NCBI GenBank assembly: GCA_036506275.1
Contig: DASXSB010000054.1
Coordinates: 32,840-96,839 of the forward strand
From: Candidatus Methylomirabilota bacterium
Lineage (GTDB): Bacteria > Methylomirabilota > Methylomirabilia > Rokubacteriales > CSP1-6
Length of the DNA: 64,000 bases
Direction of reading: 5' to 3'
Below the pieces are notes generated by a model, which was given only the letters and a program-made list of their open reading frames with translations, made no database searches and had not been told where the DNA came from. Both the position numbers and the translations under genes were made by a program. Below are positions 58,207 through 59,160 of the stretch, piece after piece. Numbering within the stretch: position 1 is the stretch's first letter; every line of letters begins with the position of its first letter.

Positions 58207-59160
58207 ATGACACTACCCTACAAGGGCGCGCGCCTTCCCGGACCGCTCGGCACGTCAACGGGGACACTCGGAGGACGACTTCCCGGCCCGCTGAACTTCA
58301 AGCAGGTCGAGGTGACGGGCGGAGCGACCAAGAAGGTCAAGACCGTGGCGATGCCGCCGCCATGGCACAACAGCACGATCAAGCGGGTGCGCTCGGTCGA
58401 CTGGCCGCTGTCCAAGGATGCCCCGGCCACCGAGGACGTGAAGCAGGGGGGAATGGCGAACTGTCCGGTGGCGGCAATCCTGGCCGCCCTCGCTCACACA
58501 CCCGTGGGCCGAAAGAGCCTCGATGGCATGGTCACCGAGTACACCAACGCTCCCACCAAGACCGTGCTCGCCGGTGACACGGTGGCGGAGCTCAACGAGC
58601 CGACCAAGGACGACGCGGACTACAAGCCGCAGGACATGGAGGTTCTCTCGAATCGCTATTTCACCGTGTCGTTCTGGAAGGGAGAGATCCCCGACACGTT
58701 CTATGTCGAATACTCGGACAGCGACTCGATCGACATGGTGTTCATGGGTTCACGGCCCAACACGAAACGGGTGCTGTGGCCGTCCGTGATCGAGAAGGCG
58801 TGCGCATTTCACTTCGGTGGCTACGATGAGATGGGCAAGTACAAGAACCACACGGCCAACGACTTCTGGGAGCTCATCTTAGGCAAGAAGCCGCAAGACG
58901 TCCTCGCGATCAAAGATTCAACGGACCTCGACAAGATCCGCGAGCTGGCACGGGCGGCCCCCGCGGTCCCCACCATAGCAGCGTCCAAGGAGCCCGGCCA
59001 CACCGAATTCGGCAAGGTTACGCCAGACCATGGTTATGCCGTTCTCGGCCTCAAGGGCGCCAGCATCGAGCTGTACAATCCCGCCGAGCCGAAAACGATA
59101 AGCCTCTCCGCCGAGGAGGTGCGGCGCAACTTCCAGGCCATCCTGTACGGGAACCCGTAG
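58207..59160 (+). CDS. Calpain-like (peptidase C2-type) cysteine protease, hypothetical.
   Basis: QGGMANCPVAAILAAL parallels the calpain QGxxGDCWLLAA Cys motif. DHGYAVLGL parallels GHAYS (His). LYNPAEP parallels RNPWG (Asn). Lower local GC. No signal peptide. N-terminal duplicated RLPGPLG/RLPGPLN motif. Confidence 0.65.
   Translation: MTLPYKGARLPGPLGTSTGTLGGRLPGPLNFKQVEVTGGATKKVKTVAMPPPWHNSTIKRVRSVDWPLSKDAPATEDVKQGGMANCPVAAILAALAHTPVGRKSLDGMVTEYTNAPTKTVLAGDTVAELNEPTKDDADYKPQDMEVLSNRYFTVSFWKGEIPDTFYVEYSDSDSIDMVFMGSRPNTKRVLWPSVIEKACAFHFGGYDEMGKYKNHTANDFWELILGKKPQDVLAIKDSTDLDKIRELARAAPAVPTIAASKEPGHTEFGKVTPDHGYAVLGLKGASIELYNPAEPKTISLSAEEVRRNFQAILYGNP

Follow-up and report, generated by a model that had tools for sequence, protein, structure and literature searches.

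A stand-alone calpain-type cysteine protease with a repeated N-terminal RxPGPLG motif in a Methylomirabilota genome

The 64,000-nucleotide (nt) stretch of a Candidatus Methylomirabilota bacterium analysed here (contig DASXSB010000054.1, positions 32,840 to 96,839; hereafter the window) carries a gene at 58207-59160 whose product resembles the protease core of calpains and whose guanine-cytosine (GC) content lies below that of its surroundings. The locus raises the question of whether this protein is a genuine member of peptidase family C2, what its repeated N-terminal sequence may signify, and how long the gene has resided there. The best overall explanation, which is probably correct, is a catalytically competent stand-alone C2 protease that bears an N-terminal tag and is an old resident of its locus. 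A preliminary description made from the sequence alone had proposed a bacterial calpain-like protease in a horizontally acquired patch; the identification has held, and the proposed acquisition has not. The gene and its active-site codons are as follows.

58207-59160, plus strand: coding sequence of the stand-alone calpain-type (peptidase family C2) cysteine protease, 317 amino acids (aa), ATG start, stop codon included.
58444-58446, plus strand: codon of Gln80, the oxyanion-hole glutamine, invariant in 49/49 homologues; equivalent to calpain-1 Q109 and to the Gln of QGELGDC in calpain-9.
58462-58464, plus strand: codon of Cys86, the catalytic nucleophile, invariant in 49/49; equivalent to the calpain Cys and placed at the N-terminus of helix 87-97.
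59029-59031, plus strand: codon of His275, the general base, invariant in 49/49; equivalent to the His of GHAYSV in calpain-9 and calpain-1.
59077-59079, plus strand: codon of Asn291, the third triad member, Asn in 25 and Asp in 24 of 49; equivalent to the Asn of RNPW in calpain-1.

The open reading frame (ORF) has the position, strand, length and ATG start first described, and its opening MTLxYKG is equivalent in all homologues of a 49-sequence alignment. The motifs QGGMANCPVAAILAAL, DHGYAVLGL and YNPAEP, from which the catalytic triad was originally read, are all found in the protein. Scanned alone, the protein gives a single Pfam match, Peptidase_C2 (PF00648), which covers only aa 152-283 and scores 21.0 bits (E 2e-4) against a cut-off of 23.8 bits. 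The same model is matched at E<=0.01 by 47 of the 49 sampled homologues (best E 1.1e-13), and most database homologues carry a precomputed PF00648 match; the Pfam check suggested earlier thus stays below threshold for the query by itself and is borne out by its family. Searches of Protein Data Bank (PDB) sequences with the single sequence returned only noise, and a family profile was needed. The 19 best matches of this profile are all calpains (best 5e-6), and its alignment with calpain-9 (2p0r) pairs dvkQGeLanCP with DICQGELGDCW and HgyAvLg with GHAYSVTG. Against the core of calpain-1, whose motifs agree with the calpain-9 alignment from the PDB, hhalign places H275 and N291 on the catalytic His and Asn (E=9e-9), and a local alignment of the N-terminal lobe with the same core places Q80 and C86 on Q109 and C115 (P=0.002). 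According to Rawlings 2015 (PMC4631099), C2 peptidases can be active with Asp in place of Asn as the third triad member.

The predicted structure points in the same direction. An AlphaFold model built on the alignment reaches a predicted local distance difference test score (pLDDT) of 87.8 and a predicted template-modelling score of 0.86, and a helix begins at residue 87, directly after Cys86. Residues 1-28 are disordered (pLDDT <50), and the rest is protease core only, with the two-lobed calpain architecture (PC1+PC2) that is distinct from the single compact papain domain. In a Foldseek search of the PDB, the top 29 matches are all calpain cores, followed by an approximately 100-fold gap in E-value. 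It is very improbable that the protein belongs to another papain-fold family (transglutaminase-like, C39, C1 or phytochelatin-synthase-like) or is a dead calpain-like scaffold. Such an origin could draw on the sub-threshold Pfam score of the query itself, on the generic papain-fold proteins that rank lower in the fold searches, and on the non-peptidase calpain homologues listed in the Rawlings survey; it is contradicted by the profile, alignment and fold results. The significant PDB profile matches are calpains without exception, the complete triad and the oxyanion-hole Gln fall on calpain catalytic positions, and the fold is specifically that of a calpain core. Neither outcome that the preliminary description had named as refuting, best homologues from a non-C2 papain-fold family or a misaligned triad, was observed. 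The protein genuinely belongs to peptidase family C2, and within it to the single-domain bacterial type that lacks Ca2+ sites.

The protease is probably active. It would operate as a stand-alone two-lobed calpain core, a clan CA cysteine endopeptidase with nothing added except the N-terminal extension, and catalysis would proceed through the usual thiolate-imidazolium pair. No Pfam domain other than Peptidase_C2 was found in the 317-aa protein, scans against NCBIfam and PADLOC gave no match, and PHROGs returned one spurious match of 15.9 bits. The enzyme is also predicted to be made without a Sec signal, a twin-arginine (Tat) motif with h-region, a lipobox or a membrane anchor. A Kyte-Doolittle hydropathy calculation gave no stretch that resembles a signal peptide or a transmembrane helix: the maximal 11-residue mean is 0.16 among the first 40 starts and the maximal 19-residue mean is 1.30 anywhere, far below the 3.23 and 2.82 of a neighbouring PEP-CTERM protein used as positive control. 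The earlier remark that a signal peptide is missing is accordingly upheld.

Some 30 residues before the oxyanion-hole Gln lies a further conserved element of the form M-P-x-P (MPPP, aa 49-52, 58351-58362), with M49 kept in 47/49, P50 in 48/49 and P52 in 45/49 homologues; divergent relatives show [ML/E]-P-x-P at this site, for example EPEP or EPSP.

Ahead of the protease core, the N-terminal extension carries a duplicated RLPGPLG/RLPGPLN sequence, already noticed in the preliminary description, which proved to be conserved across the family with a spacing of 15 residues. A related sequence opens a second protein of the window.

58231-58251, plus strand: motif copy 1, RLPGPLG, aa 9-15, in the predicted disordered region.
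58276-58296, plus strand: second motif copy, RLPGPLN (aa 24-30), offset from the first by 15 residues.
21365-22591, minus strand: gene of an unrelated 408-aa protein bearing the motif, no Pfam match; a porin-like all-beta domain is preceded by some 115 residues of predicted disorder.
22553-22573, minus strand: RIPGPLG, aa 7-13 of the 408-aa protein, located by regular-expression scans.

Within the 49-sequence alignment, copy 1 is conserved at R9 (43/49), P11 (48/49), G12 (47/49), P13 (44/49) and G15 (47/49), and copy 2 at R24 (42/49), P26 (47/49), G27 (48/49), P28 (45/49) and L29 (43/49), while most members keep the 15-residue spacing. Conservation of the motif is about equal to that of the active site despite its location in a disordered extension of approximately 30 residues. 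When single-domain relatives that seem full-length were sampled at one per 50%-identity cluster, 36 of the 69 possessed at least one strict copy near the N-terminus, and the motif is kept even in very divergent relatives that start with MPPNVRGRIPGPTG or MCLRTRGRVPGPVG. The extension is a conserved short linear motif rather than a spacer.

Outside calpain genes, a six-frame regular-expression search that covered the window plus 57 loci returned the strict heptad only once, in the 408-aa protein, whose N-terminus reads MGHPRGRIPGPLGK... / MGHPRGRIPGPLG and which has no signal peptide. This protein has 36 homologues, from Methylomirabilota, Xanthobacteraceae, Bradyrhizobium and Planctomycetes, and the motif is present in 12 of the 26 that were aligned, including the most divergent (38-42% identity). 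Its gene is solitary everywhere examined, with variable neighbourhoods in which no protease or secretion genes were found beside it. Within the plausible coding sequence of the window, approximately 21,700 residues, PGPLG is confined to these two proteins and lies in the first 20 residues of each, for which residue frequencies give an estimated chance expectation of about 0.003; for a single heptad, an estimated 6e4 chance matches would arise in 5.8e9 proteins. No bacterial signal of PGPLG sequence emerged from the searchable literature, where queries returned only collagen peptides and matrix metalloproteinase linkers.

The chance that the extension acts as a position-specific N-terminal tag, recognized by a common partner or serving a common export or packaging route, is close to even or a little below it. 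This interpretation is adopted mainly because a second, unrelated protein encoded in this genome opens with the motif equally far from Met1. It also agrees with the constant spacing between Met1 and the motif in two families that are unrelated and have no signal sequences, and with relatives of the protease core that appear as payloads, either fused to eCIS_core/DUF4157 or inside giant proteins. Against it stands the lack of any export or packaging machinery in the window regions examined and in 46 homologue loci.

A tag is slightly favoured over the alternative that the RxPGPLG repeats are the protease's own cleavage sites, at which a zymogen would shed its N-terminal extension at Pro-Leu|Gly, once or twice, and where in a variant of the same idea the 408-aa protein would be a substrate cleaved in trans. 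Autocleavage is a tenable but doubtful proposal. Calpains are activated by autodigestion (PMC4631099), the motif contains Pro-Leu-Gly within an accessible disordered segment, and both proteins bearing it are encoded in the same genome, all of which speaks for autocleavage. However, purified Tpr, the calpain-like peptidase of Porphyromonas gingivalis, is measured with Suc-LLVY-AMC as substrate and cleaves miropin at Lys-Thr and Ser-Thr, a specificity other than Pro-Leu-Gly, and the preparation behind a reported Pro-Leu|Gly cleavage may have been impure (PMC4631099). Nothing, moreover, requires a cleavage site to lie a constant 6-10 residues from Met1 in both families, which are unrelated, the loss of about 13 of the 115 disordered N-terminal residues of the 408-aa protein would have no obvious consequence, and the two families bearing the motif are reported from largely different taxa.

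The payload-like relatives just mentioned also bear on whether the enzyme is a delivered effector or toxin, loaded by its tag into a contractile injection system, a type VI secretion system (T6SS) or another non-Sec route and directed at proteins of a target cell, which is rather unlikely. In one distant relative (P0295), an N-terminal eCIS_core/DUF4157 domain (E 1.6e-32) is fused to a calpain core, an architecture described for toxins associated with extracellular contractile injection systems (eCIS) by Geller et al. 2021 (PMC8213781), and further relatives are embedded in giant proteins 3,500-7,700 aa long, as the Rawlings survey noted for polymorphic-toxin-like proteins (PMC4631099). Delivery would also agree with a solitary gene of variable neighbours and patchy distribution that diverges faster than its neighbours (55% versus 75-95% aa identity), and with the porin- or pore-like appearance of the 408-aa protein that shares the motif and likewise lacks a signal peptide. 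Nevertheless, no sheath, tube, baseplate, VgrG/PAAR or secretion genes are present in the window regions examined or in the 46 loci, there are neither PADLOC nor meaningful PHROG matches, no relatives occur on viral contigs, no immunity gene is adjacent, and the eCIS_core fusion is itself remote (E 4.6e-16 to the family profile) and without the motif.

A more far-reaching form of the tag interpretation, offered tentatively and with the odds against it, holds that M-x(4-8)-R-x-P-G-P-[LIV]-G is an undescribed, position-specific N-terminal signal for a shared recognition step, and that the protease is a delivered effector and not a housekeeping enzyme. The step would be non-classical export or packaging, or the action of a dedicated N-terminal processing or modification enzyme, and the signal would be common to unrelated bacterial proteins devoid of Sec signals, namely the entire stand-alone calpain-like clade (usually in two copies, 15 residues apart) and the porin-like all-beta family.

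The second question, that of the gene's age at its locus, was raised by its base composition and by the structures that surround it.

58196-58201, plus strand: Shine-Dalgarno sequence AGGAGG, 5 nt 5' of the protease ATG, read from the sequence.
57175-58014, plus strand: upstream neighbour, gene of a PEP-CTERM secreted protein (PF07589, TIGR02595) with a strong N-terminal hydrophobic segment.
59194-59664, minus strand: DinB_2/MDMPI_N-family gene (Pfam PF12867, PF11716), convergent with the protease gene.
58004-58107, minus strand: psi-dinB-3', the upstream repeat arm, a decayed version of a DinB-family 3' end, comprising the final ~35 codons and the stop; overlaps the PEP-CTERM stop codon.
59187-59293, minus strand: downstream repeat arm, which is the intact DinB-family gene's 3' end together with its stop.

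The PEP-CTERM and DinB_2/MDMPI_N neighbours are those named at the outset. The intergenic spaces measure 192 nt upstream of the protease gene and 33 nt to the convergent DinB-family gene, and consensus scans of 57900-59800 for sigma-70 promoters and intrinsic terminators gave no matches. The same protease with the same neighbours also occurs on a Joint Genome Institute (JGI) metagenome contig.

The lower GC content first remarked upon is real, at 62.6% for the gene (0.626) against a window mean of 70.0% (0.700), and just 0.3% of 954-nt windows are equally low. Codon positions place the deficit elsewhere than in codon choice: the first and second positions (GC1 and GC2) stand at 0.61 and 0.45 against 0.71 +/- 0.06 and 0.52 +/- 0.04 in window genes, whereas the third (GC3), at 0.83 against 0.865 +/- 0.038, is within 1 standard deviation. 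The suggested comparison of GC and codon bias therefore confirmed the dip and found GC3 normal, with the deficit confined to GC1 and GC2, which makes it an amino-acid composition effect and no evidence of recent import. Compared with eight neighbouring genes, the protease has 7.9% Lys (1.9%), 3.8% Arg (9.3%) and 9.5% Ala (14.3%); the low GC follows from a protein rich in Lys and poor in Arg and Ala. Across 39 homologue loci, gene GC is mostly 0.52-0.62 and that of the host flanks anywhere between 0.44 and 0.70, so that the gene lies below its flanks in GC-rich hosts and above them in GC-poor hosts, and this independence of the host points to a constraint on composition. The only other equally GC-poor patch of the window encodes two NIDO/PEP-CTERM surface proteins.

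That patch (25.2-28 kb) comprises two paralogous adjacent NIDO-domain PEP-CTERM genes, 25177-26145 (minus strand) and 26334-27230 (minus strand), with GC of about 0.62-0.63, together with a nitroreductase and a VWA protein; no injection-system genes were found in it. The gene at 57175-58014 brings the PEP-CTERM proteins of the window to three, and their presence implies that this Methylomirabilota genome has an exosortase system.

The protease gene is bracketed by an imperfect direct repeat of approximately 104 nt, with 80/103 positions identical. Its local score is 25.5, against a mean of 10.2 (standard deviation 1.5, maximum 21.0, n=2967) for random window pairs, and three repeat families have a common offset of about 1184 nt. 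The minus-strand frame of psi-dinB-3' ends in ...RRAPALHADERERALGD* and contains an internal stop. L060, a metagenomic contig of a near relative, gives the comparison that dates the arrangement. Its products share 95% (ACAD1), 84% (glyoxalase) and 75% (PEP-CTERM and DinB) aa identity with those of the window, while the protease is only 55% identical and has thus diverged faster than its neighbours. The order in L060 is PEP-CTERM, DinB, calpain-like, ORF285, amidohydrolase-like and ACAD1, with the DinB-family gene directly against the PEP-CTERM gene; in the window it is PEP-CTERM, psi-dinB-3', calpain-like, DinB and ACAD1. Comparison of the two orders indicates that psi-dinB-3' marks the place that the DinB-family gene occupies in L060, and that the protease gene is an old occupant of the locus, where a rearrangement took place later. 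This could have come about by tandem duplication with subsequent reciprocal losses, or else by one-sided recombination; psi-dinB-3' is 78% identical to both of its candidate sources, a left-behind resident copy and a local duplication.

Two further ORFs lie between the calpain-like gene and ACAD1 in L060 and are missing from the window, namely a 285-aa ORF (3031-3888, plus strand), in which LPHEIGLAFG forms a degenerate HExxH-like stretch, and an ORF of 383 aa (1875-3026, plus strand), which we take, by appearance only, to be amidohydrolase-like.

The protease gene is an old resident and not a recent import. Its recent horizontal acquisition, as a small GC-poor islet between the PEP-CTERM and DinB-family genes, is decidedly unlikely. 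The points that weigh for such an event, and against long residence, are a gene GC in the lowest 0.3% of windows, a bracketing DinB-3' repeat reminiscent of an att-type or insertion scar, a family scattered over at least six phyla, and a Lys:Arg ratio of 7.9:3.8 that is far from the host norm of 1.9:9.3. They are answered by the normal GC3, by a gene GC that stays mostly constant across the 39 loci whatever the host GC, by the second GC-poor patch, which likewise encodes proteins of unusual composition, and by the related contig, in which a calpain-like gene sits between the same flanking genes. The repeat arms, furthermore, are just 78% identical, so the event is old. No tRNA genes that could serve as island anchors were found in the 64-kb window, no integrase is linked to the protease gene, and searches for relatives on viral contigs found none. 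The earlier argument from low GC to horizontal acquisition is consequently not supported as it was put, on the evidence of GC3 and of the related contig. Older transfers are plausible because the family is patchily distributed over at least six phyla and a rearrangement scar marks the locus.

The family to which the protease belongs is coherent, with proteins of approximately 310 aa and 151 clusters at E<=1e-3. It is small: among 1.84 billion representatives, 73 match at E<=1e-30, 278 at E<=1e-10 and 1,733 at E<=1e-3, and some members carry the JGI label 'Calpain family cysteine protease'. This size agrees with the earlier statement that such peptidases are rare and poorly characterized in bacteria, as does Rawlings 2015 (PMC4631099). 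Carriers outside the present genome include Acidobacteriota, Nitrospirota, Gammaproteobacteria, Verrucomicrobiota, Gemmatimonadota and Alphaproteobacteria, one of them being the cultured gammaproteobacterium Povalibacter uvarum DSM 26723 (locus L026). All-versus-all ORF clustering of the 46 homologue loci found no neighbour conserved beyond close relatives. A gene of the AP_endonuc_2/UxuA-like family lies near the calpain-like gene in nine loci at differing positions, and because this family is very common, the recurrence is probably coincidence. It is upstream-adjacent in Acidobacteriaceae (L003, L006, L010-L012 and L020) and 1-5 kb downstream in three alphaproteobacterial metagenome-assembled genomes (L035, L043 and L046).

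Apparent extra 'calpain' ORFs, considered as tandem paralogues, were alternative-frame shadows or frameshifts. In two alphaproteobacterial metagenome-assembled genomes (L043 5992-7084 and L046 5884-7000), the calpain-like genes are broken across two or three frames, and these split genes are pseudogenes or long-read assembly frameshifts. Two longer relatives, P0169 (487 aa) and P0175 (828 aa), share an acidic extension in place of the RxPGPLG N-terminus, DDEFELL.EQ.LEER..P..I..DVANAL....W.LALKL.IQ.GWR....LT.LIFF.RHPELP, which has no Pfam match and may be an alternative delivery or regulatory module.

Bacterial calpains, whose roles are barely studied and among which only Tpr has been examined biochemically, are possibly the ancestors of the eukaryotic calpain family, according to Rawlings 2015 (PMC4631099). 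A minimal 317-aa core without Ca2+ sites, with a confident in silico fold and a cultured carrier in Povalibacter uvarum DSM 26723, offers a tractable model for the regulation of a calpain core without Ca2+, and the RxPGPLG sequence held in common with an unrelated family provides a concrete, testable handle. Were it to serve in sorting or packaging, a new class of cargo would be defined for the soil phyla Acidobacteriota, Methylomirabilota and Nitrospirota, in which little is known about secretion; as an autocleavage site, it would be the first specificity motif for this group. The interest of the locus would be considerably higher should the sequence prove to be a new sorting or processing signal. 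The locus also cautions that protein composition alone can cause a local GC dip in a high-GC genome. What is new here is the N-terminal sequence common to an unrelated family, the rearrangement scar and the compositional origin of the GC dip.

Compared with animal calpains, the protease is only 12-18% identical to human calpain-1 (8gx3, 1zcm) and calpain-9 (2p0r), and it lacks their C2-like (CBSW), penta-EF-hand and other accessory domains as well as a small subunit. An invariant Pro87 replaces the Trp that follows the nucleophilic Cys in calpains, the Trp of the calpain NPW motif is missing, and the position of the calpain anchor helix is occupied by the disordered extension with two RxPGPLG copies. 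The Ca2+ sites were judged by the residues of rat calpain-2, Ile89, Gly91, Asp96 and Glu175 for site 1 and Glu292, Asp299, Gln319 and Glu323 for site 2. The site-1 Glu corresponds to Val189 of the protease and to V, A, T, S, M or I in all 49 homologues, while the equivalent of the site-1 Asp, D77, is retained in 37/49. Only 26 residues follow N291, against about 57 in calpain-1 including site 2, so that a segment of some 30 residues that holds site 2 is missing. Since both calpain Ca2+ sites are missing, the enzyme is probably not switched by Ca2+ in the calpain manner; we infer from its sequence a Ca2+-independent cysteine endopeptidase of standard mechanism.

Bacterial calpain homologues generally lack Ca2+ sites, as reported in the Rawlings 2015 survey of 67 homologues from seven phyla (PMC4631099), so that a protein without them can still belong to C2. 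With that set, the protease shares a single domain, the usual lack of a signal peptide, missing Ca2+ sites, Asn/Asp alternation, a rare and patchy distribution, and a chromosomal location. The phyla given there do not include Methylomirabilota, Acidobacteriota, Nitrospirota, Verrucomicrobiota or Gemmatimonadota, the home of the present subfamily, and the parts of the survey covered here contain no mention of the N-terminal RxPGPLG motif (PMC4631099). The protease is a known kind of bacterial C2 enzyme, but one found in phyla missing from the 2015 survey.

Tpr, the only bacterial calpain-like peptidase with biochemistry, likewise belongs to family C2 of clan CA; it is likened here by description, and no Tpr structure is among the PDB matches of the family profile. 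The Pro-Leu|Gly cleavage reported for Tpr in a synthetic peptide (PMC4631099) resembles the N-terminal RxPGPLG sequence. Tpr differs in being surface-associated or secreted, and it is assayed in Ca2+ buffer. The closest parallel to a delivered calpain core is found among the eCIS-associated toxins (PMC8213781). The window protease differs from these in having no eCIS_core domain (no PF13699 match) and no contractile injection system genes nearby, whereas P0295 has exactly their architecture, with the calpain core as C-terminal payload, which shows that a calpain core can serve as a delivered domain.

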